A DNA stretch of 64,000 nucleotides from a bacterium (GCA_030649305.1 JAUSFV010000006.1:32-64031); one strand, 5' to 3'. Numbered from the stretch's first letter, positions 16,239-45,371 are shown. Notes: a model not told the origin generated them from the letters alone. A program made the numbers and translations.

Positions 16239-18974
16239 ATGAAATACATACAGAGGGGCTTTACCCTCATTGAACTCTTGGTCGTTGTCGGAATCATTTC
16301 ACTCATCGCATCCGTCGGCCTTATCTCCATGAACGAAGCGCGCGAGAAAGCGCGCGATGCCAAGCGTCTTGCCGACCTCAACGAAATTCAAAAGCTCGTT
16401 GAGTTGTATAAATCCGATAACAATGGCAACCCGCCCGGCCAGGAAGGAACCGAATACATCAATGGCGTACCGAACTGGATTCCGGGACTCTCCCCCCGCT
16501 ATATTAAAGAACTCCCATCCGACCCGCTTGATGCAGACCCCTATCAATACCACTACCAACGGGAAGGGAATGATTATGAAACCGCGGGCATTCTTGAAAA
16601 ATCGTCAAACGAAGCCTCATGTAACGATGGCGGATCGGGCGGATGCCGCTTCTTTGAAGTCGGTACAAAATTGACAATCTTTAACCCCAGTGAAGGCGCG
16701 TGGCACGCCGCGTCATCTTCGGTGCTGACCCCGGGAGACGGAGAAACCGGAACAACCACACCGCCCGACAATGGAGGCGGCGGAACCGGAACCACCACCA
16801 CAGCAACACCCGTGAGTGCCCCGACCGAAACCATTCTCGGATGGTTCAAGGGTATTACGGGTTCGGGCCCGAGTTTGAGCGGCACGTACACCCACGCATT
16901 TTATTTCAAATACAGCACCACCGTGAATCCGAATCAATCGTTCCGGGTGTATCTGAAGCGCCCGGGAGAGAGCGCCTATACCGCAGTCGCTACCTTCACG
17001 ATTCCTGTTTCCATTCCCACGGGCGGCTGCAACCCCGCGAAAGAATTCTCTGCGAACGGTTGGAAGATTGAATGCTCTACGTATCCGTATTGGCGCGTGT
17101 TCGGCCCCGCAGGAACAGCCGCAAATTACTCCACGGGAGTGTATTATGCGTATGTCGCTGCGGTGGATGAAGCCGGCACCGAAGGAACTCTGTCCCCGGT
17201 CACCCAAAATCATCTCCTAAATCAATCACTCATCACAAGCCCCGTCGGAGCCCAATCAACCACAACCCCGACCATCACATGGACGATTCCTACATGGAGC
17301 GGCATCAATATGGTCTATTGGATATCGGTCTACACGGCAGATGAAACTTCCATCTGGACGGAATCAAAAAGCGTTCTTTCGGGGACGACCACGGCGAACG
17401 CATCACTTCAATATGCCGGACCCGCCTTGAGCCCTGGCGTTACCTATTACACGAACCTCTGGGGCGAGACGCGCGAAAACCCCAACAGCACCTATGCCTT
17501 CACTATGACAAACAATATGATGCCCGCGTTTACCGTAGCAGAACCCGCGGCGCAAGGATGTCCGGTTTCCATCACATCCCTCACGCCCTCATCCGGCCCT
17601 GTCGGCACCGCAGTATATATCCGCGGAAATTGCTTCACGCCAAACGGCCAATGGACCGGCACGAACAATATCACGTTTTACACGGGCTCCGGCACCACAA
17701 GCTACGCGCATATGCAGGTATTCAATTCGCCCATTCTTGCGGACGGCAGTTTGTATTTCGGCATTCCCTATAATCTCTATAAGCCATCCGATGGCTCAAG
17801 GCCAAATGTCATTGCGGGAACCTATTACTTCATCGTCAACAACACAAATGGCACCAGCACCCCCGCGGCGTTTACGGTACCTGCCGCCCCATCTAATTGG
17901 AACAGTAGCTCATTAAATATTGACGGAGAATATCAATCTGTCGCTTGGAATGGCAATGGATATGGGGTTGTATATGGCAAAAACGGAAAAATTTACTTTG
18001 CAAAACTTGATTCAAATGGCAATAAATTAAATGAAGTAGTTCTCGCAAATGCGCCAAACTATGTTTTTTGGACCAATATCGTCTGGGATGGATCAAAATA
18101 CGGCGTTGTGTGGCCCGAAGCAAATCCGCATAATTTGCGCTTTGCTACCATGAATATTGACGGCAATGTACTTTCTAATATTCCCCTGACAGCGGGAACC
18201 GATAATGCCGACACAGAACGGCCTGCCCTCCTTTGGACCGGCAGCGAATATGTTGTTGCCTGGTCTGGCGGATGGCCGGATAATTTCAACAATCCATATC
18301 TGCCTGCACACATAATTTACTTTACAAAAATTGCTTCTAACGGACAGACAATCGTTGTAAATAAGAAAAAGTCAATAACAAGCGGAGACACACGAGCCGC
18401 AAACGGCCCCATCATTTCTTTGGCTTGGAACGGAACAAATTTCGGTGTCACATGGCAGGATATCAGAAATAGCAATGACAGCAATAACCCTGCACTGTAT
18501 TTCGCTACTTTGGACTCCGCGGGAAATAAACTAGGCAATGATATAAAAATTTCCGGAAACGGACGGGTTGGAAGCCCTAAAATTTTCGCCGACGGATCAA
18601 ATTATGCTGTTTTCTGGAGAGAAAGCAGTATTGATAATGTTAATGCAAATAGCATATACGCGACCAAGCTGGATTCGGCGGGCAATAAAATTATTCCCAA
18701 TCAAAACTTAAATACAAAAGGAGATAATGAAATGCGCCCATCAATTGCCAAAGCTGGCAGCGATTACGGTATTGTGTGGACTTCGTATCCGGAACAAAAA
18801 CTATATTTTAAATCTATAAATTCTGGTTTTGCTATGGTCCTGGATAACGAACTTGTATCGGCGACGGCTGGTGATAATGATAATGCTTATGCGGTGTGGG
18901 GTAATAACAAATATGGAATTATCTGGACGAATATCCAAAATAATCAACTGCAATTATATTTTGGAATCAAATAA
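16239..18974 (+). CDS. Large type IV pilin-like (pseudopilin) surface protein with a C-terminal 7-repeat beta-propeller-like domain
   Basis: Prepilin class III signal MKYIQRG|FTLIELLVVVGIISLIA; a Gly/Thr-rich linker; seven ~45-aa repeats of the form (N/D)G(S/T)xYG(V/I)VW…YFA(T/K)LDSxGNKL. Confidence 0.75.
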   Translation: MKYIQRGFTLIELLVVVGIISLIASVGLISMNEAREKARDAKRLADLNEIQKLVELYKSDNNGNPPGQEGTEYINGVPNWIPGLSPRYIKELPSDPLDADPYQYHYQREGNDYETAGILEKSSNEASCNDGGSGGCRFFEVGTKLTIFNPSEGAWHAASSSVLTPGDGETGTTTPPDNGGGGTGTTTTATPVSAPTETILGWFKGITGSGPSLSGTYTHAFYFKYSTTVNPNQSFRVYLKRPGESAYTAVATFTIPVSIPTGGCNPAKEFSANGWKIECSTYPYWRVFGPAGTAANYSTGVYYAYVAAVDEAGTEGTLSPVTQNHLLNQSLITSPVGAQSTTTPTITWTIPTWSGINMVYWISVYTADETSIWTESKSVLSGTTTANASLQYAGPALSPGVTYYTNLWGETRENPNSTYAFTMTNNMMPAFTVAEPAAQGCPVSITSLTPSSGPVGTAVYIRGNCFTPNGQWTGTNNITFYTGSGTTSYAHMQVFNSPILADGSLYFGIPYNLYKPSDGSRPNVIAGTYYFIVNNTNGTSTPAAFTVPAAPSNWNSSSLNIDGEYQSVAWNGNGYGVVYGKNGKIYFAKLDSNGNKLNEVVLANAPNYVFWTNIVWDGSKYGVVWPEANPHNLRFATMNIDGNVLSNIPLTAGTDNADTERPALLWTGSEYVVAWSGGWPDNFNNPYLPAHIIYFTKIASNGQTIVVNKKKSITSGDTRAANGPIISLAWNGTNFGVTWQDIRNSNDSNNPALYFATLDSAGNKLGNDIKISGNGRVGSPKIFADGSNYAVFWRESSIDNVNANSIYATKLDSAGNKIIPNQNLNTKGDNEMRPSIAKAGSDYGIVWTSYPEQKLYFKSINSGFAMVLDNELVSATAGDNDNAYAVWGNNKYGIIWTNIQNNQLQLYFGIK

Positions 18975-18990
18975 GTAAAAACGGATAATA

Positions 18991-19025
18991 AAAAAAACCG
19001 CTCCGGAAAACCGGGGCGGTTTTTG
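18991..19025. terminator. Bidirectional intrinsic terminator
   Basis: A7-CCGCUCCGG-AAAA-CCGGGGCGG-U5. Confidence 0.6.
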
Positions 19026-19030
19026 TATGC

Positions 19031-19522
19031 TCAATCAAAATCAAACGGTTCGCGGATTTTGTTCGCGATAATGCATCGCCGCAACGCTTTTTCATTCTGC
19101 AAAAATTTAAGTTCTTCGGAGGTAAAGACACTCATGGCTTCACGGAGTATATCCCATGGCGCGATTGGCACGAGTACTTTCCCGTTTTCTTCAATAAAGA
19201 ATGAATATCCTTCGCGCTCAAGACGCACCAGTAATTCGGGGTATTCTTTCACGACAGGTTCGCGATACACCAAAAAACTTTTGTTGTTTCCCTTCTTCCG
19301 CGCTTTCAAAAGCACCGCGTCTCCAGCGCCCGTTTCAAGCGGCCGAATGTATACCCAAATTTCCATGGTCTCTTCTTCCCGCGGGTCATCGGGGTCCTCA
19401 TTCATAGGACAAAACGCGTGCGCTTCTTCCGTATAGCGCGATACATCAAGTAATTGCTGGCGATACCCCGCACACCCCGCAAGCAAAACGGCGCATACCG
19501 TACTCACAATCAATCGGCGCAT
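19031..19522 (-). CDS. Putative lipoprotein, ~163 aa
   Basis: MRRLIVSTVCAVLLAGCAG: signal peptide plus lipobox LAGC. Confidence 0.5.
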   Translation of the reverse strand: MRRLIVSTVCAVLLAGCAGYRQQLLDVSRYTEEAHAFCPMNEDPDDPREEETMEIWVYIRPLETGAGDAVLLKARKKGNNKSFLVYREPVVKEYPELLVRLEREGYSFFIEENGKVLVPIAPWDILREAMSVFTSEELKFLQNEKALRRCIIANKIREPFDFD

Positions 19523-19758
19523 AATGGTATCTCCGTCTATAAAAAACTCTTTTGAGTATAACAAAATTTTCTTATTCTGTAAACCCCATTAGAACAGTAA
19601 AAAAACAAATAAACCGCGCGCTATCTATACCAATAGGCCGTCCTATTGTAATACTTATAATAGGTACAAAAAAAATTTACATTCTCGCGTACATTTCCAA
19701 TAAGCAATTTTCTAACGGGGTAAATCAAAAAAGGCGGGCAAGCCGCCTTTCAAAAAAA

Positions 19759-20439
19759 TTATGTTTTCAGAAGATCCGTCCATGGCTTTGCAATATCTCC
19801 CGCTTTGCATTTCGGACATTCTTCTTTTGTATAGACCGGAATGTCAACCTGAACGGCTGCGTAGAAATAGGGGGCATATCTGGTCTCAACCTCTTTCACG
19901 AACGAAGTAGTGCCTTTCGCGAATACCGCCCGAGCCACAACCGTGCCGCCCAGCCCCTCCACAAATGACGGAAGACGTTGACCAACGCATCGCCCCTGCG
20001 AGGATACGGTATTAAAAACAAATACCTTATCACCCGACTTGATTTCACCCTCAACCAACACATCTCCGAAACGACCAGTATCCTTATAATCCCACAGGGC
20101 ATACCGAATCCGTTTACCCAGAGGAGATTTTCCGTAGTCCGCGAACTCTTTGATGATGGTATTGGTGCCAGGTTCATTCGGCCCGAACACCACATCATAC
20201 CCGATCCGACGCGGAATAGCCCAACGAAACCAATCGGTCACAATCCACCGAACAAACCGCTCATGTTCTGCAATCGGTCGTGGGGTGAAAAAATGCGTAA
20301 GGTGCGCACCATCGGGGTCTGCGGGATATTGCACATGCGCATCAAAAAAAAAGGTATACGGCATGCCGAGCATCTGCTTTATTTGCGATAACGGAAACGA
20401 ATCGGAAACAATGGCGATATGTTCGTTATATTTTCTCAT
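19759..20439 (-). CDS. Hypothetical protein translationally coupled to the FAH gene (4-nt ATGA overlap)
   Basis: Track ORF of 226 aa with no confident family assignment. Confidence 0.45.
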   Translation of the reverse strand: MRKYNEHIAIVSDSFPLSQIKQMLGMPYTFFFDAHVQYPADPDGAHLTHFFTPRPIAEHERFVRWIVTDWFRWAIPRRIGYDVVFGPNEPGTNTIIKEFADYGKSPLGKRIRYALWDYKDTGRFGDVLVEGEIKSGDKVFVFNTVSSQGRCVGQRLPSFVEGLGGTVVARAVFAKGTTSFVKEVETRYAPYFYAAVQVDIPVYTKEECPKCKAGDIAKPWTDLLKT

Positions 20440-21326
20440 GGGTTAAGTCTTCGCGGATCGGGCATCGTAACAAAAGCAACCTCGTTTTCCAAAACTCCAA
20501 GCGCTCCCGCATCCATACGAATACTATCGCCTTCCTGCAACCACGGATATTTTGCAGGCTCAATCTCTTGACCAGTTACCGAGTCAATACGCGCGGCAAA
20601 CTCGGCAATACACCCATTCCCGATGGTACCGGATGCGAGCAGATCTCCCTTCTCAAATCCCTGATTCATCCTGCCATACCACGCAATAACTTGCGCGAAA
20701 CTCCAACACTTCTTCGCGCCGGTTTTCGGGTCATCAAAATAAATGGAACGAAAATTATCCTCACAGCGAAGATCCCATGACACATCTCTCCAATGCTTCA
20801 CGAAAAGCCGCATGTGAATATAGGGAACGCCGTTTTCATCAAAATCAAAGTTGGATGCCGGAACCATCCATGGTCCAAAACTTTTTTCAGCAATACCCTT
20901 GGATGGCGCTACGGAAAGGCGCATCGCCATATCTGACGGCTGAAAGTCGCGCGCGCTCGTATCGTTAAATATGGTGAAAAATGCGTCTCTGGTTACAAAT
21001 TCAATCGCCTCACGCTCGTCCTTGGTTTCAAACGGGTACGGAAAATAAAGACAAATTTCGAATTCATAATCGGCCTTCGTGACAAACGAAGGAAAAATAA
21101 TTGCATCGCCGTTGCCTTTTATTTTGCGCTTTTGTAAATGCGCATCATAGCCATAGGGGCGTTCATACCATTCATCCGGAAAACGCTCGCCGCGCCTCCC
21201 GCGAATTTGTTCCACATGCTTCCGAAAACCAATCATATCGCGAAGCCGCAACGACGATTCTTCGCGCACAACTTCCGCCGCATCATGATACTTTCTACAG
21301 GAATGTCTCACGCTTATCCTCCACAC
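20436..21326 (-). CDS. Fumarylacetoacetate hydrolase (FAH) family protein
   Basis: …DYEFEICLYF… and …GDLLASGTIGNG… resemble FAH-fold motifs; 296 aa. Confidence 0.65.
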   Translation of the reverse strand: MWRISVRHSCRKYHDAAEVVREESSLRLRDMIGFRKHVEQIRGRRGERFPDEWYERPYGYDAHLQKRKIKGNGDAIIFPSFVTKADYEFEICLYFPYPFETKDEREAIEFVTRDAFFTIFNDTSARDFQPSDMAMRLSVAPSKGIAEKSFGPWMVPASNFDFDENGVPYIHMRLFVKHWRDVSWDLRCEDNFRSIYFDDPKTGAKKCWSFAQVIAWYGRMNQGFEKGDLLASGTIGNGCIAEFAARIDSVTGQEIEPAKYPWLQEGDSIRMDAGALGVLENEVAFVTMPDPRRLNP

Positions 21327-21418
21327 AAGATGTCAAACAACTTACGAAATTTATACCATACTCAAATAAAAAACGCAAGAAAAAACCGCCCCGACCGTAG
21401 TCGGAGCGATTCATTGAT

Positions 21419-22633
21419 TTACTTTTTTTCTTTTTGAATCTCCCGCCACTGCCTATACCATGAAATTTCGTAATCCTTGATTTCGCATCCCTCTGCGGCG
21501 GGAAGAACCACGAGAGACGATTTCGTCTCAAGCATAATCGCAACCTGGTCAAGCCACGGGAGATTCTCCGGCTTCGGCGGATCTTCCGTACGCTGTTTAT
21601 CAAGCGCGCGGATATCCGGACCATGATAGGTTCCCGGCGGATGCAAGGTGATACACCCGTCCTGAATCTCGGGACGCACGTTGTAACCACGATGATTAAA
21701 GAGAAGCTCAGTCACATAATTCTGATGAGGATACGGAAGAGAATGCCCCCACCGAGGCAAAAACGCCTGAACGGACGCGCCCTCGTCTTCTGTCACGAAA
21801 ATCGTGAGTGCTTTCGGATCAAGATGAAAATCGGCCGAGGAAAGCGCGCGCAAATCTTTCAGATGCAAAACAAACGGATACAAATCCCCTTCCCATGCGA
21901 CTGCCGTAAACGGAGAAAATGGATACCAAAGACACGCCTCACGACCCACATGCTTCTTTACCCGAACAAAATGGTAGGGGCCGCGAAAGATATCTGCGAG
22001 AGGCACCGGTTCGGCAATCTCAAAAGCGGCGGGCGAAAAAGGATATCCGTCAACCCAATAATGCGAGGGGCGCATGATGCGGCTTGAACATTCATACAGT
22101 AAAATAAATGCGTCCCGCTCTTCAAGAAACGCGTACGTAACGCCACGCGGAATGAAAAAGAAATCCCCCTTTTCATAAGAAAGCAAACCAAAATCAGTAA
22201 AAATCTTCCCGTGTCCCCTATGCACAAAACCAAGCGTGTATGCGCCCTCATGCCGATAGATGTTATGCGCGTCATGGCGCCCGTTGAAAAGAGAGACGGC
22301 AATATCGTCCCCCACATATAACCCCCGGGGGAATTCGAGCGAATGAAGATCGTGAGATATTTTTTCGAGATCAAACGCGCGTCGTTCTAGTTTCATATTC
22401 TCCTGTTGCACAAGCAAGGAAGCCCGTGATAGAGAATCGGACTTTCGAGAATATTCGGATTGATAAACCACGCTTGGAGAATTCTCGCAAATTATCTCTG
22501 CCCCAAACTCGAGTTTATAGTTATACAAACCCTTCGGCGCGCGGCCGTTGAGCGGAAACGTAATTTTATCTTCGTATCCCTTGCGCACGCGCTTCTGATA
22601 AGGAAAGCCCGCCATAACCGGCGCGTTTTTCAT
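21419..22633 (-). CDS. hmgA: Homogentisate 1,2-dioxygenase
   Basis: ~405 aa with the HGD-type cupin core (…YRHEGAYTLGFVHRGHGKIFTDFG…GDFFFIPRGVTYAF…); AGGAGGAGG RBS before ATG 22633. Confidence 0.75.
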   Translation of the reverse strand: MKNAPVMAGFPYQKRVRKGYEDKITFPLNGRAPKGLYNYKLEFGAEIICENSPSVVYQSEYSRKSDSLSRASLLVQQENMKLERRAFDLEKISHDLHSLEFPRGLYVGDDIAVSLFNGRHDAHNIYRHEGAYTLGFVHRGHGKIFTDFGLLSYEKGDFFFIPRGVTYAFLEERDAFILLYECSSRIMRPSHYWVDGYPFSPAAFEIAEPVPLADIFRGPYHFVRVKKHVGREACLWYPFSPFTAVAWEGDLYPFVLHLKDLRALSSADFHLDPKALTIFVTEDEGASVQAFLPRWGHSLPYPHQNYVTELLFNHRGYNVRPEIQDGCITLHPPGTYHGPDIRALDKQRTEDPPKPENLPWLDQVAIMLETKSSLVVLPAAEGCEIKDYEISWYRQWREIQKEKK

Positions 22634-22774
22634 TCGCCTCCTCCTTCCAAAATTGTCAGTGAGCCACAAACTTTATTTAACAAAAATTTTAAATTTTGTC
22701 AATATAGACAAAAAACATCCCGCGGGGCACAAATATGATAATGAGAACCTTGCCAATCAAAAAAGGAGGCGTAC

Positions 22775-23614
22775 GTGAAAATCAAAAAACAGAATCTGAC
22801 ATTTGATCATATCGCTACGGTCAACGGCGCGAACGACGGATCGCTTGAGAGAACGGTGAGCCTTTTTAAGCTCCTCGGCTTTACCTCAAATATGTATGAT
22901 CGCGCAAAGGGTGTCGGAGAAGACCGTCCCGACGGAACTAAGATGCGTACCATCGTAGTCGCGCGGGACCATGTAAAAATTGCGCTCATGGAAGGGATGG
23001 ACGGGCGGAGTACGGACGGCAAACCCATTGCCTCGCAAATCACCGAATACTTTAGGCGGTTTGGTGTATGCGTCCAGCATATCGCCATTCGCTGTAATGA
23101 CCTTCAGGCGCTCGTGCAAGAATTACATAAGCGCGGCATTCGCTTCATCACGCAATACGAAAACGGAAAGCCGCAAATTCTCGTAAGCGAAGACGAGGAA
23201 GAAGGAACAGTTCTGCAATGTTTCACGTTTCCGGTTGAAGGAACATTCTTTTTTGAACTCAAACAGGTTATCAAAAAAAGAGGCGCAAAAAATATCCAAG
23301 AATTCAGGGATGCGAACGTGAAAGGACTCTGGTCAAGCATCAAGGAAGCCATTGACCAGGGCTGGCTTTTCAACGTCAATATCCGCGGTGAAAAAATAAA
23401 ATCAACCCGCGCCTACTCTCATCCCGAACTTGCGGCGTATATCAAAAAATTAGTTGCGGGAAATCCTTTGTGGGAGAGCGAGGTTGAATATATAACGCGC
23501 GTGGCTGTAGAGAAAACGAAACATGAGATGCTTAATGCGGGAACACTTATCAAGAAAGAAAATCGTCTTGAACTTCCCCTGCCACCCGTGAAAAACAAAA
23601 TCAAAGGCGGGTAA
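22775..23614 (+). CDS. Vicinal-oxygen-chelate dioxygenase resembling 4-hydroxyphenylpyruvate dioxygenase
   Basis: Two VOC-like halves (…FDHIATV…; …VQHIAIRCNDL…), divergent from hmgA. AGGAGG RBS. Confidence 0.5.
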   Translation: MKIKKQNLTFDHIATVNGANDGSLERTVSLFKLLGFTSNMYDRAKGVGEDRPDGTKMRTIVVARDHVKIALMEGMDGRSTDGKPIASQITEYFRRFGVCVQHIAIRCNDLQALVQELHKRGIRFITQYENGKPQILVSEDEEEGTVLQCFTFPVEGTFFFELKQVIKKRGAKNIQEFRDANVKGLWSSIKEAIDQGWLFNVNIRGEKIKSTRAYSHPELAAYIKKLVAGNPLWESEVEYITRVAVEKTKHEMLNAGTLIKKENRLELPLPPVKNKIKGG

Positions 23615-23654
23615 AATCCATAATCATTCGCGGAGGTGCTCCGCGAAAAACAAA

Positions 23655-23680
23655 AGGTCGCAGACATGCGACTTTTTTTC
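23655..23680 (+). terminator. Intrinsic terminator after ORF 22775..23614
   Basis: GUCGCA-GACA-UGCGAC followed by U7. Confidence 0.7.
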
Positions 23681-23687
23681 TTTTTCC

Positions 23688-23722
23688 CCTTATCGGCTAA
23701 TTCGTGCGAATTAGCCGATAAG
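23688..23722. repeat. Perfect palindrome CCTTATCGGCTAATTCGTGCGAATTAGCCGATAAG (copy 3)
   Basis: Identical to the copies at 5768 and 13564; again just 3' of a terminator. Confidence 0.8.
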
Positions 23723-24067
23723 AAAATATGCCCACACTAATTTAATTTTATATAAAACCCCCAGCGAGACAAAATAAAAACGCTGCGGGATTCCGCGGCA
23801 TTTTTATCCGCCCCGCGATTGGACAGGTTCAAAAGTTTTAGCATGAAATCACGTGGGTTGCCGCAATTTCAGCCCAAGGGCCGAAACAATGTAGGCATCC
23901 CGAAAAAGTGAGATTGTCCTAAAACCTTGACCCGCAATCAACGGAGCTTATCTTCATTATACACGAAACACAAACCATAAAACAAGACCGCTTCTGAAAA
24001 TGTTGATTATATTTTACAAATATGGTATTCTAAAATCAGAGCACTTTGTCAAAAAATGAGCAAAAAT

Positions 24068-25471
24068 ATGTGCGGATTTCTCGGCATCGCATCGCAAGAA
24101 ACCGATGTTGCGGAAGACCTCTACCTGAGCCTTTGGTCACTCCTGCATCGCGGCAAAGAAAGTTCGGGTATCGTCACCTATGACGGCGCATCCTACCATC
24201 CCGAAAAAGGCATGGGTACGGTTGAGGTAGTATTCGGAGGCGATACGCTCTCGCGTCTCAAAGGACGAATCGGCATAGGACATGTCCGCTACTCCACGAC
24301 CGGAGAAAGCTCTCTCAAAAACGCCCAGCCCATTGAGGGGTCATTCAAAAGCACGCCGTTCTGGATTGCCCATAACGGCAATCTGACAAACACGGAAACA
24401 CTCCGAAAAGAATGCGAAGAACGCGGATACTTTTTTAAAACATCAACCGACACGGAGGTTATCGCGGCTCTCATATATTTCTCCGGCGCGCCAAATTTTG
24501 AAGACGCCCTGAAACGCGCCCTGCGAAAAATTGAAGGCACCTATGCGCTGACCATTCTCTCCAAAGACACGCTGTACGCTGTTCAGGACGAAACGGGCAA
24601 TCGGCCTTTGAGTATGGGGCAAGGAAGGGGTCTTACGGTGTTTGCGTCGGAGAGTGCGGCCTTCGATGTGCTTGGCATCAAATACGTACGAGATATTAAA
24701 GTGGGCGAGATAATCGCGGTATCGCTCGAAAGTCCCCTCCTCCCCTCGGAAATTCCGTTCCGCAATCGTAAAGACGCCCCCGAACGCCCGTGTATTTTTG
24801 AATACGTATATTTTCTGCGCCCGGACAGCAAGTGGTACGAACGACGCGCCCAAGTTGTCCGAGAACATATGGGACGAATTCTATGGAAAGAATGTCCGAT
24901 TGAAGCCGATGTGATAGTGCCGGTTCCTGACTCCAGCAACTTCATGGGCGCGGGACTTTCAAAAGAATCAGGTATCCCGCTTGAGATGGCTTTATTTCGT
25001 TCGCACTATGTGGGACGAACATTCATTGAGCCCGTGCAAGCGCGGCGAACCAAAGAAATGAGAATCAAGCTGAATATAATACCCGAACTTGTTCAAGGGA
25101 AAAAAGTTGTCGTAGGAGATGATTCAATTGTGCGTGGCACCTCAATTAAACGAGCCATTTCGCTTGTTCGGGAGGGGGGTGCCAAAGAAGTCCACGTGCG
25201 CATAAGCTCTCCTCAATATATCTCACCATGCTACTACGGCATTGATACCTATCGCGTCAAAAACGAACTTATCGCGAAAAACCACGCGGGCAACATTGAA
25301 GAAATTCGAAAAGAAATCGGCGCGGATTCGCTCTATTATCTAAGCTTAGAGGGGATGAAGCGCGCCGTGACTGACGCGCGCGATGACGAACACCGCGCCC
25401 TTCAATTCTGCGACGCCTGTTTTACCGGAAATTACCACATCCCCATTCCACAAGAAATCATCACATCATAG
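24068..25471 (+). CDS. purF: Amidophosphoribosyltransferase
   Basis: MCGFLGI N-terminal nucleophile Cys, a class-II GATase domain, and a C-terminal PRTase domain (…VVVGDDSIVRGTS…). Confidence 0.9.
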   Translation: MCGFLGIASQETDVAEDLYLSLWSLLHRGKESSGIVTYDGASYHPEKGMGTVEVVFGGDTLSRLKGRIGIGHVRYSTTGESSLKNAQPIEGSFKSTPFWIAHNGNLTNTETLRKECEERGYFFKTSTDTEVIAALIYFSGAPNFEDALKRALRKIEGTYALTILSKDTLYAVQDETGNRPLSMGQGRGLTVFASESAAFDVLGIKYVRDIKVGEIIAVSLESPLLPSEIPFRNRKDAPERPCIFEYVYFLRPDSKWYERRAQVVREHMGRILWKECPIEADVIVPVPDSSNFMGAGLSKESGIPLEMALFRSHYVGRTFIEPVQARRTKEMRIKLNIIPELVQGKKVVVGDDSIVRGTSIKRAISLVREGGAKEVHVRISSPQYISPCYYGIDTYRVKNELIAKNHAGNIEEIRKEIGADSLYYLSLEGMKRAVTDARDDEHRALQFCDACFTGNYHIPIPQEIITS

Positions 25472-25561: not shown

Positions 25562-25593
25562 CTATTTTCTTATTCGCGCGAATTAGAAATAAG
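25562..25593. promoter_or_regulatory. Near-palindromic site CTATTTTCTTATTCGCGCGAATTAGAAATAAG overlapping the 3' end of the arsR-like gene
   Basis: Core ATTCGCGCGAAT; direct and inverted repeat of the site at 25900-25931. Confidence 0.6.
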
Positions 25594-25848
25594 AAAAATT
25601 AAGACACGAACCGCCGCAGGGAGTGAATCCGCGAGGCGATAAAAAACAGTAAGGCTGACTTGATTTCGCTCAACGATATCTAACTGCCGAAGCAAATTAA
25701 GATGTTTTGAGGTGGCAGTAAAAGATAAACGAATTGCGTCAGCAATTTCCCCGACGCTCAAAGGCCGTTTTTTCTGCAAAAGAAGTTTAATAATCGCGAG
25801 CCGGCGCTTATTCGCAAGCCCTTTTAATATTTTTTCAAGATTTTTCAT
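25570..25848 (-). CDS. ArsR/SmtB-family winged-helix transcriptional regulator
   Basis: …RLAIIKLLLQKKRPLSVGEIADAIRLSFTATSKHLNLLRQLDIVE… HTH typical of ArsR. Confidence 0.65.
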   Translation of the reverse strand: MKNLEKILKGLANKRRLAIIKLLLQKKRPLSVGEIADAIRLSFTATSKHLNLLRQLDIVERNQVSLTVFYRLADSLPAAVRVLIFLISNSRE

Positions 25849-37574: not shown

Positions 37575-38432
37575 ATGAATATTCCAGCAGAGTTTAGAAA
37601 CTTCTCACCATCTTCACTACTTGAAACACCCGAACTCCAAAACTTTATCAAAAATCGTCAAGCCGGACTGAATGAGATGCCTCGTGACATTCTTGAGAAA
37701 ATGGCGGGAATCATCCGCAGTTCCACCGTGCTCACGGGCATCACGTTTGATGGCGGGGTTATCGCGGGCGCCGATGGGCAGTCAACCGATACACGGGGAC
37801 TTGAAATCGCTGATGACCAAGCCCCGAAATTGCACCAGGTGGCGCCACATACCGTTATCGGCATGACGGGCTCGTCCGCCCAATGCGATGAACTAGCGCG
37901 AATCATTGAAGAGGTGCTACGCGTTGATGAAGCAATCAATCAATTCGCAGACACCCCCCTTACCACAGAAGGCACCGTAGGAAGAGTGTCTATGGTAGTC
38001 AGACAAAATCTTCCTCTCGTCGCCTACTATGGCCTTATCGCCATCCCCCTCCTTACCACCATCAACAAGGAAACCGGGGAAGGAAAGGTGTATCATTACG
38101 ATGCCGTGGGAGGATATTCTGACGCCACCGAAGGATTTTGGGCTGATGGTTGCGGGGGCCCGAATGCGAAAGGAATATTCCGAGGAAACACAAAAGATAT
38201 TGCGAAGGGACTTTCAAAAGACGCCGCCATCATGCTTACCGTACACGCGCTCGCAAAGACATGCCATGTCAATGCCGGATGCGGAGGTAAGCTCCTCGTA
38301 AAAGTCATCACCAAGCAAGACGGCATCGTTGATGTATCTCAGGACCGAATCGCGGAAATCTGCAAAGAACTCGGTCCGCGGGTGATCGGAACATATGGCC
38401 TTGGATACCCCTACGCAACCCCCAGGGAATAG
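37575..38432 (+). CDS. prcB: 20S proteasome beta subunit (PrcB-like, with ~49-aa propeptide)
   Basis: Mature N-terminus TVLTGITFDGGVIAGADGQ (Thr1 Ntn-hydrolase). C-terminal …DGIVDVSQDRIAEICKEL resembles actinobacterial PrcB …DGAVDVPESRIAEL. Confidence 0.75.
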   Translation: MNIPAEFRNFSPSSLLETPELQNFIKNRQAGLNEMPRDILEKMAGIIRSSTVLTGITFDGGVIAGADGQSTDTRGLEIADDQAPKLHQVAPHTVIGMTGSSAQCDELARIIEEVLRVDEAINQFADTPLTTEGTVGRVSMVVRQNLPLVAYYGLIAIPLLTTINKETGEGKVYHYDAVGGYSDATEGFWADGCGGPNAKGIFRGNTKDIAKGLSKDAAIMLTVHALAKTCHVNAGCGGKLLVKVITKQDGIVDVSQDRIAEICKELGPRVIGTYGLGYPYATPRE

Positions 38433-38444
38433 GAGGAAAAAATC

Positions 38445-39236
38445 ATGAGACTGTTCCCGGAAAGCGACTATCAATCAAAATCGAACCGAGACAGGTTCGA
38501 ATCGCTCAGAGGCATAATCGAAAATCAACCGCCCCTTGTAGCACTTGCGTATAAAGAAGGACTTTTATTCATGAATTTCGGCACACGACATGATTTCCGC
38601 CGAATTGCTCCGCTCAACGAAGGGAATACCTTAGTATTCGGAGGCGTTGGCAACCGAGGCGATATAAAGGATCTCCACACGAATGGATGGGTAAACCCGG
38701 CAATGCGCCGCCTCTATGCGTGCCTCCCCAGCAATTCAAAAGAGATATCGGGGCGCGTCATTAGCGACGGAATCGCGGATCTTATGCGTTCACGATTTAG
38801 CTTTGTATTCTCGGGACCTTTCATCGCCGAAATTTTCATTGCAGAAGTCGGAGAATCAAATAACGTTATCTACCATATCCAGACCGACGGAAACACATGT
38901 ACCCACGATGATTTCCTCGCGTTGGGAGCCAGAAACTACTGCGCCAATAATCCCCTCCGTTTAAGAGTCGTGAGAAGCGCTGTGGACTCAAGTGTGGGGA
39001 CACAAATCCAAGAAGCAAAGGAAAAAATTGAACTGTGCGCGATTGAACAATACCTTGAAGAGAATCCGCCAAACCCCTCTCAGAGCCTTGAAGAGGCGCT
39101 GAAACTCGGTGATGTTTTGAAAGAATTCTATGTCCGAGAAATCAGCGGAGAGGAAGATCCGGAAAAGACAAAGATGCCTGTTAGCTACAACATTCTCGAA
39201 AGAGGAAAGGGGCTCTTTGTCCATTCAGACAAATAA
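38445..39236 (+). CDS. prcA: 20S proteasome alpha subunit (PrcA-like)
   Basis: …RDRFESLRGIIENQPPLVALAYKEGLLFMNFG… aligns with mycobacterial PrcA …[32 protein letters not shown]…. Confidence 0.75.
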   Translation: MRLFPESDYQSKSNRDRFESLRGIIENQPPLVALAYKEGLLFMNFGTRHDFRRIAPLNEGNTLVFGGVGNRGDIKDLHTNGWVNPAMRRLYACLPSNSKEISGRVISDGIADLMRSRFSFVFSGPFIAEIFIAEVGESNNVIYHIQTDGNTCTHDDFLALGARNYCANNPLRLRVVRSAVDSSVGTQIQEAKEKIELCAIEQYLEENPPNPSQSLEEALKLGDVLKEFYVREISGEEDPEKTKMPVSYNILERGKGLFVHSDK

Positions 39237-39322
39237 TTTAAATGAAAAAGCCCATCCCATATGCGATGCATAGGGATGGGCTATTTATTTTGAGAATTTT
39301 ATCTTTATCACCTTATCTTTAT

Positions 39323-40063
39323 CTAAAAACGGGATTGCTCTTTGAGACCTTTCTTATCCGATTTCGCGCTCAATTCCGCCTTCGCTTTCTCTAAAAAGAA
39401 GTATGTCGCAAGGAGGTTTTCTTTATATTCCTCGTAGGTCGCGCTGTCGGCAAAACCATACTGCACGATTTCTTCCCCCTTCAGCAGGGTCGGCTTCTCC
39501 CGATTGCTTAAATCGGCGAGGTAGCGCGCCTTGTCAAAAGGCTTATCAGCGCGCGAACAAAAGGATGCAACGCGATCGGCAACATTCTGTATCATTTCCC
39601 GAGCACCCTCATCGTGTTCTTTTTTTGCTTTATCGAGTTCTTCCTGCGACGCATACTGATGTTCCGGAACGAATCTCGGAAACCCGAGCGCAAAAAAGGT
39701 ATCCGGCGTAACATACCGCTTCTCGCCTGCCGCAAACACCAGCTGGCCGAAGAGGGCTTGCGTGCCAATTGCAAACGTGTCAACCGGACGCGGAGAAGTT
39801 TTGATGGCTGATACAATCTGAAACGCGTCAAAAAGCGGCGCGTCCACCTGCTTGATCACAAGCTTTGTCCGAACAAAACCCTTCGGAACCACAATGCTCG
39901 GGGAAGCCAATGGCTCTGTCAGACCAAACCAATTCAGTCGGGTTACCAGAGAATTTGCAGAAGGATTCAAAACTGGCCCCACGGGAAACTGGAGTTCCGA
40001 ACCAAGTTCGGTAATCCAATAACCCTTCAAATCATCGAGCCAACTATCGCCCTGTCGCTCCAT
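39323..40063 (-). CDS. Hypothetical protein in the Pup-proteasome locus, 246 aa
   Basis: GAGGAGG RBS; no recognisable domain. Confidence 0.45.
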   Translation of the reverse strand: MERQGDSWLDDLKGYWITELGSELQFPVGPVLNPSANSLVTRLNWFGLTEPLASPSIVVPKGFVRTKLVIKQVDAPLFDAFQIVSAIKTSPRPVDTFAIGTQALFGQLVFAAGEKRYVTPDTFFALGFPRFVPEHQYASQEELDKAKKEHDEGAREMIQNVADRVASFCSRADKPFDKARYLADLSNREKPTLLKGEEIVQYGFADSATYEEYKENLLATYFFLEKAKAELSAKSDKKGLKEQSRF

Positions 40064-40083
40064 GTTTTCTTCCTCCTCTTTGA

Positions 40084-40803
40084 TTACTGCGACCGCCCCG
40101 GCTTCATATCCTTGATGGCGGGGGCACCCCACGATGTATACAACTTCTCAGCCATTCGAATACCCTCTTGTTCGCCCTTTGTCTCGGCCTGAAACATCGC
40201 TCGCATCAAGGCACCCAAGAAAATAGCCTTTTTCGTTTTCATGTCCGGTGCGCGTTCAATCATGGGCCACAAAATCCCTAACACGCGCGCAATAAGATTT
40301 GGATTATATTGCGTCCAAAATGCCGCCTTAATCTCTTCTTTGTCCCGAGAAGACAAACCGTGTAAAAATATTTCGTTTGCCTCCTCCATGGATACCGCGG
40401 GCCAAGAAAAGTAAGGAACCAAAGCGTCGTTCGTAATAATCTTATGCATTGCATAAAGTTGAGAACCCGCAACATGACTAAATGAATCAATTACGCCGAG
40501 TAATTCGTGTGCCGCATCTGAAACCGATGGCCGCTTCTGGTCAAGCGACACGATAACTGGTCGCAATACCAGATCAACCGCAGAACGATTTGCATCGGTA
40601 AACACATGAGCACTCGCATGATCCATGCGCCGTTCCGCATCAGACATCTCAACATTCGTCCAAAGATTCAAAAGAACGTTCTCAAAAAATGCGGAGCGCT
40701 CTTCCGAAGAAGACAGCTCACCAAGATGCTTGAGAATATCGCGCGAGCGCTCCCCCGCCGTATCATACGTTCCGTGAATAATTTCCTCGGCTCGATTTTT
40801 CAT
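40084..40803 (-). CDS. Hypothetical protein in the Pup-proteasome locus, 239 aa
   Basis: AAGGAGAAAAGGGGGAG RBS; no recognisable domain. Confidence 0.45.
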   Translation of the reverse strand: MKNRAEEIIHGTYDTAGERSRDILKHLGELSSSEERSAFFENVLLNLWTNVEMSDAERRMDHASAHVFTDANRSAVDLVLRPVIVSLDQKRPSVSDAAHELLGVIDSFSHVAGSQLYAMHKIITNDALVPYFSWPAVSMEEANEIFLHGLSSRDKEEIKAAFWTQYNPNLIARVLGILWPMIERAPDMKTKKAIFLGALMRAMFQAETKGEQEGIRMAEKLYTSWGAPAIKDMKPGRSQ

Positions 40804-40830
40804 TGTTCTCCCCCTTTTCTCCTTTGTGAG

Positions 40831-41310
40831 TTATGAATCCGGATTCGTTTCTTGTCTTCGTGTTGCTTCAAACATGCGCGGGTCTTCCTCGCGAAATTTC
40901 TCAAACAACTTCTGATATTGAGGTGTCTCCCGCATACGTTCAACATCGGGATACGCGCACATAACGCCTCGTTGCGGAGCAACATATCCCTCGCCCCCCA
41001 TGAGTCCGAGCACCGGATCTCGATCTTGATCAATGAGTATAATCGTATGCTGGCGTTCTTTGGTTTCTGGATTAAAACGCGTAATTTTTTCAAAATTACC
41101 GGAAGACCACGAATACTTATGAAAGGGGCACCGCTCACATGCCGAAAGGTCAATAATCCACCCAGGCGCTCCGTTGGTAATCTCTTTTGGACAAGGAATG
41201 CCAAGTGATGAGGTCGCATTATCAACCACCGAAATAGAAAGAGGGTCTTCACCATTTCTCGTATTGATGGCGCGCTCAAGCCGCCCGATCGCATCTACCA
41301 CATCAGCCAT
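40831..41310 (-). CDS. Hypothetical Cys-cluster protein in the Pup-proteasome locus, 159 aa
   Basis: AAGGAG RBS; contains CPKE…CERCPFH. Confidence 0.45.
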   Translation of the reverse strand: MADVVDAIGRLERAINTRNGEDPLSISVVDNATSSLGIPCPKEITNGAPGWIIDLSACERCPFHKYSWSSGNFEKITRFNPETKERQHTIILIDQDRDPVLGLMGGEGYVAPQRGVMCAYPDVERMRETPQYQKLFEKFREEDPRMFEATRRQETNPDS

Positions 41311-41534
41311 TTTGTTTTCTCCTTTTCAAAGACCAGCCGGAAATTAAAAAGAGGGTAGTGTTTACGCGCCCAAATCTAATTCCCGCCTACGTGCTAGGAA
41401 TAGACTGGGGGTAACAACTACCCTTGCCCTTTTCTTTCCGCCTTGTAAGTTACCCGCATTGTAGCAAAACCGAAAAAATCTGTCAATAGTTCGCGGACAA
41501 ATAAAAAGGGGCTCAAAGCCCCTTGAAGATATAG

Positions 41535-43151
41535 CTATACTCCATCCGGAAAACGAACGCGTTGAAACGCCCCCGGATTCGGATCAAACGGATCCTCATC
41601 ATATTCGGTAACGACATCGGGCGACCAACCCCTTCCGGACTTAGGATAATATCTGAGATAATTCCAGCCCACTTCCATAAGATCCGCGTTCGTATGCCCC
41701 CGGAGTGCTGCAATCCTCTTATCCCGCGCTTCCGCGCGCGTTCCCGAAGGAGCATGATTTTTCGCGTGCAGAATCTCCGATTCCGAAACAATCAACGCGA
41801 CAAGCCCTTTTTGTACGAGTTTATAATACAGACCCTTATCGCGCCGCACATCATGAAAAAAATTATCAAAAAACTTCATACGGCCCCATGCATCCGTTTT
41901 GCTCGTAGTTCCGCTTTTCGTAATAATTTCAAGCGGGAGTATCGGAGCGCTTTCAAACGAATATCCGTTTCGTTCCATGTCGGGCAGAATCCAGTAATGC
42001 AATTTCGCGGCCCACCCGACGTAGGGCGCTAAAATTTCCGCGCATTCGAGGGGAGAGCGCGCCCGCTCAAACGCTTCAATCAAAAAAATATATTTTTGAA
42101 GGCCGTCCTCTTCCTCGTTGCTCCAGAGAACCGGGGAACCGCTCCGCGCCGCCTCCCGAAACAGCGATGCCTTGTACGCAAGAATCGGCTCAAGATACAG
42201 CTTCCGATGCAAACGTACCGCGTCATACTCCTCATTCTGAAAACGAAATGTTTGATGCTCGCTTCCCCACCACATAGTCCGTGTTTGCATGTATGCCAAT
42301 TCGCGCGAAAAGCGCCCCGAGTCTTTTTTATAATCCTCTTTGCGAAGCACCCGACCCTCAATCATGCGAAGCAGGATCCCGAGAATCACGTTGGGTACAT
42401 ACATCTGCCATTCGCACATTGATGAATCAAGACCGATAATCTGAAGGCGCCAGTACTCGCGGCGGTCCGCAAGCGGCTCATCGCACAAAAGCACCATGGG
42501 GCGCATTGGTGCCGTGGATGATGTTCCCGAAAGCCGGTCCACAAACGGAGCGCGCTGGGAGAGCGAATACAAAAGACGCCCCCCATTGGTAACCCATACC
42601 AGCCCCGACCCCGTCATCCACGAGCTTGAAAAAAGAAACGGACCGAGAATGGGTAATGCCTCATCATAGGACACTTCGCGAATATTCAGGGGAAGATTAT
42701 AGTGATTCCCCCACGAAACATAGTGCGTACGAGAACGATAATCCCGGGTGTCCGGAGACCAGCGTTCGGAATTCATGTTGGTATTATTTTTAAAAAACGT
42801 ACAGCCCCCGAAACGCGCGAATTTGGCACGAATGCGCGATGCGGGCGATCCCTGTATATTCAGCGTTGCGGCAATATCCTCAAGAATACGCTCGCCCGCT
42901 TTTCCCCATGCAACAAGGTCGTAGACACTTCCGCATTCGGGAGTCGAAATTTCAAAATGATTTCCGGTATCCCAATATGCCCGTCCGCCGTTTGCGAGAA
43001 AATCTGATTTTACGGGAAGAATCCGCGCCCCATCCCTCATCTGCGGCCGCAAGGATTCCACGGCGTCATGAAGTTTAGCCCAATTATCCCCAAAAATTTC
43101 CATCGGAAAAAAAGCGGTTTCGTTCTCCATACCCCAGATACGCTTTTGCAT
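41535..43151 (-). CDS. pafA: Pup ligase PafA (Pup_ligase/PafA-Dop family)
   Basis: MQKRIWGMENETAF… and …FLANGGRAYWDTGNHFEISTPEC… correspond to PafA MQRRIMGIETEFG… and …[27 protein letters not shown] RBS. The PafA-versus-Dop assignment is by N-terminal similarity only. Confidence 0.6.
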   Translation of the reverse strand: MQKRIWGMENETAFFPMEIFGDNWAKLHDAVESLRPQMRDGARILPVKSDFLANGGRAYWDTGNHFEISTPECGSVYDLVAWGKAGERILEDIAATLNIQGSPASRIRAKFARFGGCTFFKNNTNMNSERWSPDTRDYRSRTHYVSWGNHYNLPLNIREVSYDEALPILGPFLFSSSWMTGSGLVWVTNGGRLLYSLSQRAPFVDRLSGTSSTAPMRPMVLLCDEPLADRREYWRLQIIGLDSSMCEWQMYVPNVILGILLRMIEGRVLRKEDYKKDSGRFSRELAYMQTRTMWWGSEHQTFRFQNEEYDAVRLHRKLYLEPILAYKASLFREAARSGSPVLWSNEEEDGLQKYIFLIEAFERARSPLECAEILAPYVGWAAKLHYWILPDMERNGYSFESAPILPLEIITKSGTTSKTDAWGRMKFFDNFFHDVRRDKGLYYKLVQKGLVALIVSESEILHAKNHAPSGTRAEARDKRIAALRGHTNADLMEVGWNYLRYYPKSGRGWSPDVVTEYDEDPFDPNPGAFQRVRFPDGV

Positions 43152-43221
43152 GCAATCTCCTCTTTGATAAAGAACCAACCTGCTTTCACAATATCAGAAT
43201 CGGCGCATAAGGGAAATATTG

Positions 43222-43255
43222 ACAAAAAAAATAATGAGGCCTAAGAGGCCTCATT
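43222..43255 (-). terminator. Intrinsic terminator after pup (minus strand)
   Basis: AAUGAGGCCU…AGGCCUCAUU hairpin followed by U8 on the minus strand. Confidence 0.65.
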
Positions 43256-43305
43256 ACTATAGAAAAATCTGTTGCGTATTATTAGTAATTAGTTATCTGT
43301 TCGGG

Positions 43306-43521
43306 TTATTCTCCGCCCCGCTGAACGTAGCTCTTCACAAATTCTTCAGCGTTTTCTTCCAAAACTTCATCAATTTCATCCACTAAATCATCCAAATCCT
43401 TCTTTAATTTTTCGGTCTTTTTCTTTTTCTCTTCCTCTTTCGTATCGTCTTTTTTTGGAGTTTCCTCAACCTCTTTTTTCTCTTCGGGTTTTTCTTGTTT
43501 CTTCTTTTGTTCCTGACTCAT
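43306..43521 (-). CDS. pup: Prokaryotic ubiquitin-like protein Pup (C-terminal GGE)
   Basis: …DLDDLVDEIDEVLEENAEEFVKSYVQRGGE is near-identical in pattern to M. tuberculosis Pup …LLDEIDDVLEENAEDFVRAYVQKGGQ. 71 aa, Lys/Glu-rich disordered N-terminus, strong RBS. Confidence 0.85.
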   Translation of the reverse strand: MSQEQKKKQEKPEEKKEVEETPKKDDTKEEEKKKKTEKLKKDLDDLVDEIDEVLEENAEEFVKSYVQRGGE

Positions 43522-43607
43522 GTTTTTTCCTCCTCCCTAAATCAATTTTGTTATACAAAATTAATCGGGCGACCAATCGGCAAAGCCGATTGGTTTAGCC
43601 TTTCTTG

Positions 43608-45257
43608 CTATTCATCATATTCAGGATACGGAGTACGATGGACAGAATAAATGCTTCCGCATTTTTTCGCAATACCCGCGCCAAGCGCACGCCGCAAAAA
43701 TTCATGCCGATCCGCGCCGAGAAGAAGTGGTGCATACTCCGCTTCGGTCATCAGAGGATTTGAACAATCAATTTCATAATATGCGTTTTCCTCCGGAACC
43801 CACACGTCTATCTCCGCCCAATGCCATCCCTGCACGTGCGGCTCAAACAAACGCTGTACCGCGACCTGAAAGCCGGAGCGCGTCGGCGGGGATTCAGAGA
43901 CCGCGCGCGCGATATCGGCATCGCTAATAATCCGATGCTCCCGATGCTTTTCTTGAACGAATTTTTGAAAAAATATGCTTTTTGCGGGGTCGATATTTCC
44001 ATAGCTCCGGTCAAGGCTGATTGCTTTATGCGAACAGAAAGAATCAATCTTGCCGCGCGCCATCAATTCCTCTATGACACCGCGTTTCGTCACCCAATCC
44101 AACATCCCGATACAATCACCGGAATTTCTCCGAAGTTTTTTAACAACATCAAGCCCGAGCGCCACCGCTTCATCATACTCGGGTTCCCGAATACCATACT
44201 CCGCACAATACCTCCCCATAAGCGTTATATATTCTTCAAGAAGATCAAGGGGTAAACAGGATTCTTTGCGATTTCGCATAGAAATTTTTTCTTGAAACGC
44301 GAGGTCCCGCGAAATCTTCCAAAACGCTCTCACGGGATCCGTCAGTATAAACTGACCGCCGAGAAATTCGTCCTCAAGCATCTTTAAATGAATTTCGGTA
44401 AGGGCAATCGTAAGAAAATAGGCGGTCTCACACATGTTTTGATCTGCTGTAATCACATGCAGACGGCGATACAGCGCTGCATCCGCATACGGCACGTCGC
44501 GCGTATTCATTAGGGGCCGTTTGCTTAGTGTGGGATATGTCTCCCCTAGTCCCATCGTACCGATGCCCGCCAACTCCGAAAAAAAATCCGCGCGCTGAGA
44601 AATCTGGAAGTCGCACCACGGGAGCCCCGTCACAAGCCGATTATGGCTTCCCACCTTTCCTTGGCCGTTAAAAATCTGACGGAGTACGAGCCACGGAATC
44701 GTACGTTCAATCAAGGCGCCCCACGGCACGACACGCCGCATAAGATAATTATCATGATGCGCATAGCTTACCGAAAAATCGGCGAGCAGCTCAGGAGATA
44801 CATCAAGAAACGTTTCCCCGCGGCCCAGCGCAAAACCATAATTATTTTTTGATAACAAAAAACCGGTTCCCGCTTCGCGATGGCGTTCTGTCAAAAACCG
44901 TATGATGCGGTCAGCAGCTTCATAGTGCGCGAGTTTCTCTTTGGGTGTGCGGCAAAGGGCGATTGAGAGTTCCGGATGCGCCCCGTCCACATACAATCGC
45001 GCGCCATTCGCAAGAAGAATATTTGTTTCGCGCCACGAGCGTTCCGTAAAATAGGTATGGCTATGATCTTCCCCGTCCGCAAGGCGCGGCCGCGAATCCC
45101 ACAAAGAAAAACTTCCGCCCGAAAGCCACTCGGGCCTGATACGCGACACAAACTGCCACGCGAGATCAGCGGGACTCTGTGAAGAATCCGGCGAACTGAT
45201 CCCATATTCTATTTCGCTTCCCCCATATTTTGGTATCGAGCGCGATTCACGGGGCAT
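43608..45257 (-). CDS. dop: Dop (depupylase/deamidase of Pup) of the PafA/Dop family
   Basis: …[14 protein letters not shown]… and …[19 protein letters not shown]… …[31 protein letters not shown]… parallel Dop RIMGTEVEYGISSP…, [47 protein letters not shown]. Confidence 0.65.
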   Translation of the reverse strand: [549 protein letters not shown]

Positions 45258-45371
45258 ATTTCCTCCCCTTTCTTTATATGTATATATGTAAAGCAACTTA
45301 TTTCATGCTATCACGGCCACTCCAATGAAAAAAGCCCACGACCTCGGTCGGGGGCTTTTGGATGTAATGAG

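Follow-up and report, generated by a model that had tools for sequence, protein, structure and literature searches.

Which enzyme would isomerize maleylacetoacetate in a homogentisate cluster that carries no gene of the familiar isomerase type? This question is raised by a bacterial DNA stretch of 64,000 nt (GCA_030649305.1 JAUSFV010000006.1:32-64031; hereafter the window, with positions counted from its first letter), in which the genes within 19759-23614 encode HPPD-, HgmA- and FAH-like enzymes together with a protein that we call ORF A (ORF, open reading frame). The homogentisate pathway is textbook chemistry, and its HgmA-to-FAH step needs a nucleophile-assisted cis-trans isomerization; in the Pseudomonas hmgABC-type cluster, hmgC is a GST-zeta maleylacetoacetate isomerase. 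To our knowledge, the isomerase step of this pathway is known only from glutathione-dependent GST-zeta enzymes, and we know of many prokaryotes with HPPD-HgmA-FAH clusters that have no recognizable isomerase. In the gentisate branch, mycothiol- or cysteine-dependent DinB enzymes do the equivalent job. Our analysis identified the cluster as a known hppD-hmgA-FAH system of a variant type, in which each of the three enzymes has a minimal form, and ORF A, a degenerate protein of the orotate phosphoribosyltransferase (OPRTase) fold, as a candidate for the isomerase step.

The original prediction for this locus had described an HPPD-like gene divergent from an hmgA-FAH operon, with a fourth gene of unassigned function coupled to FAH, and all four ORFs were located where it had placed them. 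On the minus strand lie the gene of an HgmA-like cupin (21419..22633; 404 amino acids, from an ATG after GGAGG), that of a short FAH-like hydrolase (20436..21326; 296 amino acids from a GTG) and ORF A (19759..20439; 226 amino acids), whose start overlaps the FAH-like stop by 4 nt as ATGA. The start of the FAH-like gene is uncertain (21326 or 21311), as other gene callers place it five codons later, which gives a protein of 291 amino acids. The gene of the HPPD homologue, a VOC-family protein (22775..23614, plus strand; 279 amino acids, GTG start after AAGGAGG), diverges from the hmgA-like gene across a spacer of 141 bp. Each of these genes has homologues elsewhere, with E-values of 1e-42 to 1e-136, and the arrangement recurs in unrelated lineages, which argues that they are real genes and not chance ORFs. 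As to the three profiles by which the original prediction had proposed to check its reading, the HgmA-like protein passed PF04209 (27.1 bits; cut-off 21), the FAH-like protein passed PF01557 (75.2 bits; cut-off 23.9), and the VOC protein matched TIGR01263 over the catalytic half (model positions 157-345 only) at 60.1 bits, below the cut-off of 277.

The HgmA-like protein remained below the cut-off of PF20510 (18.8 bits; cut-off 20.2) and of the TIGR01015 equivalog model (55.3 bits; cut-off 510.75), and it aligned to the structure of human HGD (PDB 1ey2) with an E-value of 6e-14. In this alignment, H303, E309 and H337 match the iron-binding His, Glu and His, and H270 matches the substrate His, which we take to be the Fe(II) triad H335/E341/H371 and H292 in human numbering. 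These four residues are invariant across eight members of the HgmA-like family, so the His-Glu-His triad, the absence of which had been named as an argument against the original assignment, is kept. A protein identical to the HgmA-like protein of the window is named homogentisate 1,2-dioxygenase by NCBI. We conclude that it is a divergent homogentisate 1,2-dioxygenase-like cupin, with homogentisate cleavage as its predicted activity.

The FAH-like protein scored 16 bits against TIGR01266, the model for true FAH (cut-off 375), and gave no match to PF09298, the FAH N-terminal domain. Across 10 homologues, its invariant residues are D30-x6-H37, E88-x-E90, D122-x3-R126-x2-Q129, K143, T234 and E242; from D30 to K143, the spacing is presumably that at which mouse FAH carries its metal ligands, catalytic His and oxyanion residues (D126/H133, E199/E201, D233/R237/Q240 and K253). 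The predicted metal and catalytic residues of the hydrolase are therefore kept in this short form. In contrast, a canonical FAH of 420 amino acids with PF09298 is present in a locus of Dehalococcoidia (L034). It should be noted that in L034 the short HgmA type and the canonical FAH are kept apart by an ABC transporter, and that a 322 amino acid protein without a Pfam match, encoded directly before the canonical FAH (L034:12943-13911), may be another pathway accessory.

The third enzyme, the VOC protein, consists of the HPPD catalytic C-terminal barrel and a C-terminal extension of about 85 amino acids, and the 141-bp spacer to the hmgA-like gene leaves no room for an N-terminal HPPD domain. 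Its invariant residues include H12, H102 and E161 (the iron His/His/Glu), Q88, Q101 and Q148, as well as N181 of the C-terminal helix. A Foldseek search with a model of moderate confidence (predicted local distance difference test, pLDDT, of only 64.5) returned HPPD or hydroxymandelate synthase as every top match (E-value 3e-9). The partial TIGR01263 coverage, the kept residues and these structural matches together identify the protein as a one-domain HPPD homologue ("mini-HPPD"). With the HPPD/hydroxymandelate synthase family (TIGR01263; PDB 3isq, 2r5v) it shares the catalytic barrel, three Gln residues, the iron-binding His, His and Glu and the Asn-bearing C-terminal helix, whereas it lacks the N-terminal barrel and an internal insertion of about 25 amino acids and has a lineage-specific C-terminal tail. 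A word-indexed search recovered only five homologues of this protein. Clusters of Thermoplasmata (L001), NC10 (L036) and other Patescibacteria (L007, L040, L041) likewise encode the short form, at the place where further clusters have a full-length HPPD. The resulting one-domain family (227-310 amino acids; in addition to the window, L001:9713-10438, L007:306-1238 and L036:6289-6972) retains all iron ligands and the active-site Gln and Asn residues.

Profile and PDB matches and the conserved catalytic residues thus uphold the cluster identity given by the original prediction, and the locus most probably represents a divergent, minimal homogentisate route of tyrosine breakdown. The one-domain HPPD-like Fe(II) dioxygenase would convert 4-hydroxyphenylpyruvate to homogentisate, the short HgmA-type ring-cleaving dioxygenase would convert homogentisate to maleylacetoacetate, and the short FAH-type C-C hydrolase would release fumarate and acetoacetate. 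Related loci of Patescibacteria (L006, L009 and L012) have the HgmA-FAH-ORF A block flanked by a full-length HPPD, which passes the TIGR01263 cut-off in L006 (373 bits) and L009 (440 bits) and was seen in L012 as a tblastn match only, 83% identical to the HPPD of L009. In L007, L009, L012 and L041, ORF A is followed by a gene for an ACS-type CoA-ligase-like protein of about 660 amino acids; the two ligases that were scored (L007 and L009) fell below all cut-offs, and acetoacetate-CoA ligase (NF002937) was the top model only for L009 (397 bits). Some related clusters without ORF A have a phenylalanine hydroxylase and an aminotransferase alongside, as read from motifs, and many clusters of short-type HPPD, FAH and HgmA genes were found in a metagenome scan (query, the FAH alignment; 80 loci kept).

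When compared with bacterial hppD-hmgA-FAH clusters of the hmgABC type, the window cluster likewise has a divergent HPPD-type gene near hmgA and FAH and keeps the catalytic iron and metal residues, and its relatives resemble the known type in their full-length HPPD and acetoacetate-/acetate-CoA-ligase-like gene. The window enzymes differ in being short and deeply divergent (16-60 bits against cut-offs of 277-511), with a one-domain HPPD, an FAH without the N-terminal domain and a gene of the phosphoribosyltransferase (PRTase) fold beside FAH, and no GST-zeta gene was found. This last point agrees with the original prediction, which had seen no GST-zeta-like gene: Pfam scans covered 69 window ORFs, including every one of the 58 non-overlapping ORFs of 110 amino acids or more, and no GST, DinB/MDMPI or aminotransferase domain was among their listed matches (in one scan 25 of 36 families were listed, and half of that set was scanned again).

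That all three known enzymes lie far under their equivalog cut-offs weighs against this assignment and makes their substrate specificity a predicted one. The whole cluster could instead work on a different aromatic substrate, such as another 2-oxo acid or a hydroquinone, in which case the tyrosine label would be wrong here. Such a reading would agree with the low scores, with a VOC protein that lacks the N-terminal HPPD domain and whose model is matched about as well by hydroxymandelate synthases as by HPPDs, and with the window scan, in which no aminotransferase was found among the ORFs covered. We nevertheless consider it quite unlikely, given that sister clusters have a full-length HPPD in the same position (two of the three were scored, and both pass the cut-off), that the short VOC protein keeps the active-site Gln, Asn, His and Glu of HPPD, and that the iron triad and the His292 equivalent of HGD are kept in the HgmA-like protein.

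The homogentisate route being our preferred assignment, the question turns to ORF A. Structure prediction, which had been proposed for this ORF, was carried out with AlphaFold2 and gave a model (pLDDT 92.6) with the PRTase fold, whose best structural matches are all OPRTases. At the sequence level, ORF A had no match to PF00156 at an E-value of 0.1 and scored 21.6 bits against TIGR01367 (cut-off 150), although one family member (P0015) matched the latter model over its full length at 44 bits and distant relatives (P0040-P0092) pass PF00156. The original prediction had reckoned with the possibility that ORF A might prove to be a recognizable unrelated enzyme, for example a PRTase; the fold is indeed that of a PRTase, but the sequence criteria of that family are failed. 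As neither a GST nor a DinB domain was matched in ORF A and its fold is that of a PRTase, it belongs to neither of these isomerase families, and a similarity in function is all that we propose; ORF A is no member of any known isomerase family. Its annotation is hypothetical protein at NCBI and orotate phosphoribosyltransferase for two homologues at JGI, and full-text literature searches returned nothing on the family and nothing on homogentisate genes where its host phyla were named.

The conservation pattern of ORF A is centered on the former active site. In 48 of 50 family sequences, the acidic pair of the phosphoribosyl pyrophosphate (PRPP) motif is replaced by N143-(G/T/S/P), a position that aligns with the E-D of the Helicobacter pylori OPRTase just before the phosphate loop; across the family, the residue that follows N143 is T, G, S, P or A. 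H35, H46, W73, P87, G122, N143, G149 and C208 are near-invariant over the 50 sequences, as is R155 in the family, and the NC10 clade alone lacks C211. All FAH-linked members share C151, which is missing from the distant relatives that are true PF00156 members; according to DSSP analysis of the model, it occupies position two of the helix behind the old phosphate loop. Compared with the Thermus-type OPRTase (TIGR01367; PDB 4paw, 5hkl), to which identity is 12-16%, the ORF A family falls under all profile cut-offs, has N-G/T in place of the acidic E/D-D pair, carries the new invariant Cys151 and a CPxC motif near the C-terminus, and is linked to FAH instead of pyrimidine genes.

This linkage holds across a rare but widely scattered family. 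A word-indexed search recovered 14 ORF A proteins, and 17 clusters at E < 1e-30 emerged when 1.84 billion representatives were searched exhaustively with a profile. By a scan of species-representative genomes, ORF A was detected in Patescibacteria, many Melainabacteria/Obscuribacterales, Thermoplasmata archaea and a metagenome-assembled genome labeled Proteobacteria; it is also present in an NC10 Methylomirabilis genome. In bacteria and archaea together, it adjoins a short FAH gene in 32 of the 34 loci that have it (duplicate contigs counted). The gene order is (HPPD or mini-HPPD)-HgmA-FAH-ORF A-(ligase) in Patescibacteria, HgmA-ORF A-FAH-mini-HPPD in Thermoplasmata, ORF A-FAH-mini-HPPD-HgmA in NC10 and FAH-ORF A alone in Melainabacteria, and the 4-nt stop/start overlap of FAH and ORF A is found in the window, L001 and L036 irrespective of that order. 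Just upstream of the Melainabacteria-type pair, a divergent rhodanese (sulfurtransferase) gene was observed in both loci that were inspected for it (L024:6557-7003 and L003:6071-6439, the taxon of L003 being an inferred one).

Taking fold and context together, it is very improbable that ORF A is a divergent but functional phosphoribosyltransferase of the pyrE type that is unrelated to the aromatic pathway and stands beside it by chance. The OPRTase fold, the JGI name of two homologues, the full-length match of P0015 to TIGR01367 and the occurrence of purF (24056..25471) and a Prs-type gene in the same window would suit such an enzyme. However, ORF A lies far under the TIGR01367 cut-off and has no PF00156 match, the acidic ribose-binding pair is replaced in nearly the whole family, FAH adjacency in two domains of life is unexpected for a housekeeping pyrE, and purF is unlinked to the cluster in every other locus. 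Profile scores, loss of the acidic PRPP pair and FAH linkage led us to reject ORF A as a genuine OPRTase.

Our best explanation, which we favor tentatively, combines the homogentisate route with an ORF A that is a former OPRTase turned FAH partner and Cys-based isomerase. For ORF A, we observed the fold, a PRPP motif that has lost its acidic pair, the pattern of conserved residues, and the FAH adjacency with translational coupling; from these we infer a substrate, a chemistry and a possible complex with FAH. ORF A would descend from a Thermus-type OPRTase, with PRPP binding apparently lost, and would have been recruited as a partner of FAH. Gene context and conservation point to one mechanism as the most likely of those considered, if still less probable than not: a glutathione- and thiol-independent, Cys-based maleyl-to-fumaryl cis-trans isomerase that works with FAH. 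The kept anion-binding loop, the invariant Cys at a helix N-terminus and the company of FAH fit a self-sufficient isomerase of this kind: the old phosphate-binding loop would hold the substrate carboxylate, Cys151, with its thiol presumably activated by the helix dipole at that position, would form an adduct at the maleyl double bond, and rotation and then elimination would give fumarylacetoacetate, to be passed to FAH. H35, H46, C208 and C211 could bind a metal or contribute to the wall of the pocket.

The host lineages presumably have no glutathione. A precedent for a non-orthologous, thiol-specific isomerase in bacteria without glutathione is NCgl2918, a mycothiol (MSH)-dependent maleylpyruvate isomerase of the DinB type (PMC5790435). 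ORF A would share with the GST-zeta and DinB enzymes the role of supplying a fumaryl substrate to an FAH-family hydrolase, and these enzymes set the precedent for lineage-specific, non-homologous replacement; its fold, in contrast, is unrelated to theirs, and the use of its own Cys is proposed, with no external thiol cofactor implied. It is doubtful, yet conceivable, that ORF A is the first of a new class of maleylacetoacetate/maleyl-beta-diketone isomerase that needs no glutathione, has a PRTase fold, relies on its own Cys and forms a complex with a minimal FAH, beside a functional one-domain HPPD. The original interpretation of the locus is therefore supported in part: the cluster identity stands, ORF A has a PRTase fold but a degenerate one, and its isomerase role is that of a candidate.

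ORF A could also be a non-catalytic or regulatory partner of FAH, a ligand-sensing or stabilizing subunit whose remnant PRTase pocket binds a small anion or a nucleotide, by analogy with PRPP-synthetase-associated proteins or the PRTase domain of PurR. This is unlikely in our judgment. With a median isoelectric point of 5.96, the family ranges from acidic to neutral, and neither a DNA-binding nor an RNA-binding domain was found; no fusion of ORF A with FAH was seen among the homologues, and the invariant Cys and Asn sit exactly within the former active-site loop, which suggests chemistry over mere binding. A nucleic acid-binding regulator of the PyrR/PurR type is likewise unlikely, given the same isoelectric point and the finding of no helix-turn-helix (HTH) motif.

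Several observations weigh against ORF A as the isomerase of this pathway. We know of no isomerase with a PRTase fold, and the activity is a candidate one, proposed from gene context and conservation. The FAH-ORF A pair of Melainabacteria has no HgmA or HPPD gene within 8 kb, so that its substrate may differ, and ORF A stands alone on one contig of Patescibacteria (counted twice, as L005 and L010). Among the 80 metagenomic FAH loci, only three have ORF A (L041, L066 and L107); an HgmA or HPPD-type gene lies beside FAH in 32, and 29 of these 32 are without ORF A. The closest relative of the window cluster, L040 (53% identity for HgmA, 59% for FAH and 49% for the VOC protein), has no adjacent ORF A either. 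The scarcity of ORF A in these loci and its absence from L040 mark it as an extra gene, confined to certain lineages, of a three-gene module that is itself widespread. With close FAH homologues and the near-identical architecture of L040 lacking an adjacent ORF A, an obligate subunit of this FAH subfamily was rejected. Another isomerase in the same slot of the ORF A-less clusters was also considered and rejected, as no GST or DinB gene turned up there; their commonest extra genes are Flavin_Reduct and Lrp-type regulators. A Flavin_Reduct (PF01613) gene for about 200 amino acids follows HgmA in 9 of the 29 ORF A-less HPPD-FAH-HgmA clusters (L053:7708-8340 and eight other metagenomic loci of the L053-L119 set) and is a recurrent accessory of the short-type cluster.

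The same observations bear on whether ORF A performs some other step near the hydrolase, such as cis-trans isomerization of the free maleate that direct hydrolysis of maleylacetoacetate would release, keto-enol tautomerization of a beta-diketo acid, or the equivalents for, e.g., maleylpyruvate. Many HPPD-FAH-HgmA clusters have no clustered isomerase, which leaves room for a short FAH that acts on the maleyl form, the Melainabacteria pair occurs with neither HgmA nor HPPD nearby, and known maleate isomerases use a Cys nucleophile. On the other hand, the pair forms part of HgmA/HPPD clusters in Patescibacteria, Thermoplasmata and NC10, and we regard another step as rather improbable. A Cys-based isomerase that feeds FAH remains our tentative choice for ORF A.

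Signals for expression of the cluster were predicted as well. The divergent intergenic region (22634..22774) holds both Shine-Dalgarno sites and, at 22677..22713, overlapping AT-rich inverted repeats (TTAACAAAAATT/AAATTTTGTCAA and TTTTGTCAAT/ATAGACAAAA) that form a candidate operator; no regulator gene adjoins it, and the nearest HTH gene is an ORF of the ArsR type (25570..25848, minus strand). Consensus scans placed a terminator-like hairpin of 13 pairs with a T run in the gap between the hmgA-like and FAH-like genes (21383..21412, minus strand), which is possibly an attenuation point or a sign of a separate transcription unit. Two further hairpins of this kind lie directly 3' of the ORF A stop (19729..19751, minus strand), at the end of the FAH-ORF A unit, and 3' of the VOC gene (23652..23677, plus strand). 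An Rfam search of 18900..24100 gave no credible match.

A further ORF downstream of ORF A (19031..19564; 177 amino acids), which is not conserved elsewhere, has a promoter-like site of its own. On the opposite strand, immediately downstream of the cluster, a 911 amino acid protein (16239..18974) has an N-terminal prepilin motif like that of type IV pilins (weak N_methyl match). The window also holds ComEC, FtsZ/FtsA, Prs, RNR, NDK and a Pup-proteasome gene set (37575..47351), in a genome that otherwise looks small and Patescibacteria-like. This set includes a proteasome subunit (37575..38432, plus strand), two genes of the Pup-ligase family (41535..43178 and 43608..45296, both minus strand) and an Mpa/ARC-type AAA ATPase with proteasomal OB domains (45372..47351, minus strand).

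Patescibacteria are usually seen as metabolically minimal, and our analysis indicates that some of them keep an oxygen-dependent aromatic catabolic module. The one-domain form suggests that HPPD may be able to function as a single catalytic domain, which bears on the enzymology of HPPD and on herbicide and drug-target work. ORF A, as a rare family of nucleotide-synthesis ancestry that travels with FAH and bears a newly gained invariant Cys, offers a testable candidate for the isomerase step. If this candidate holds true, ORF A would plainly exemplify the recruitment of an old fold for new chemistry, and it would supply the missing isomerase step in some Patescibacteria, Thermoplasmata, NC10 and Melainabacteria.

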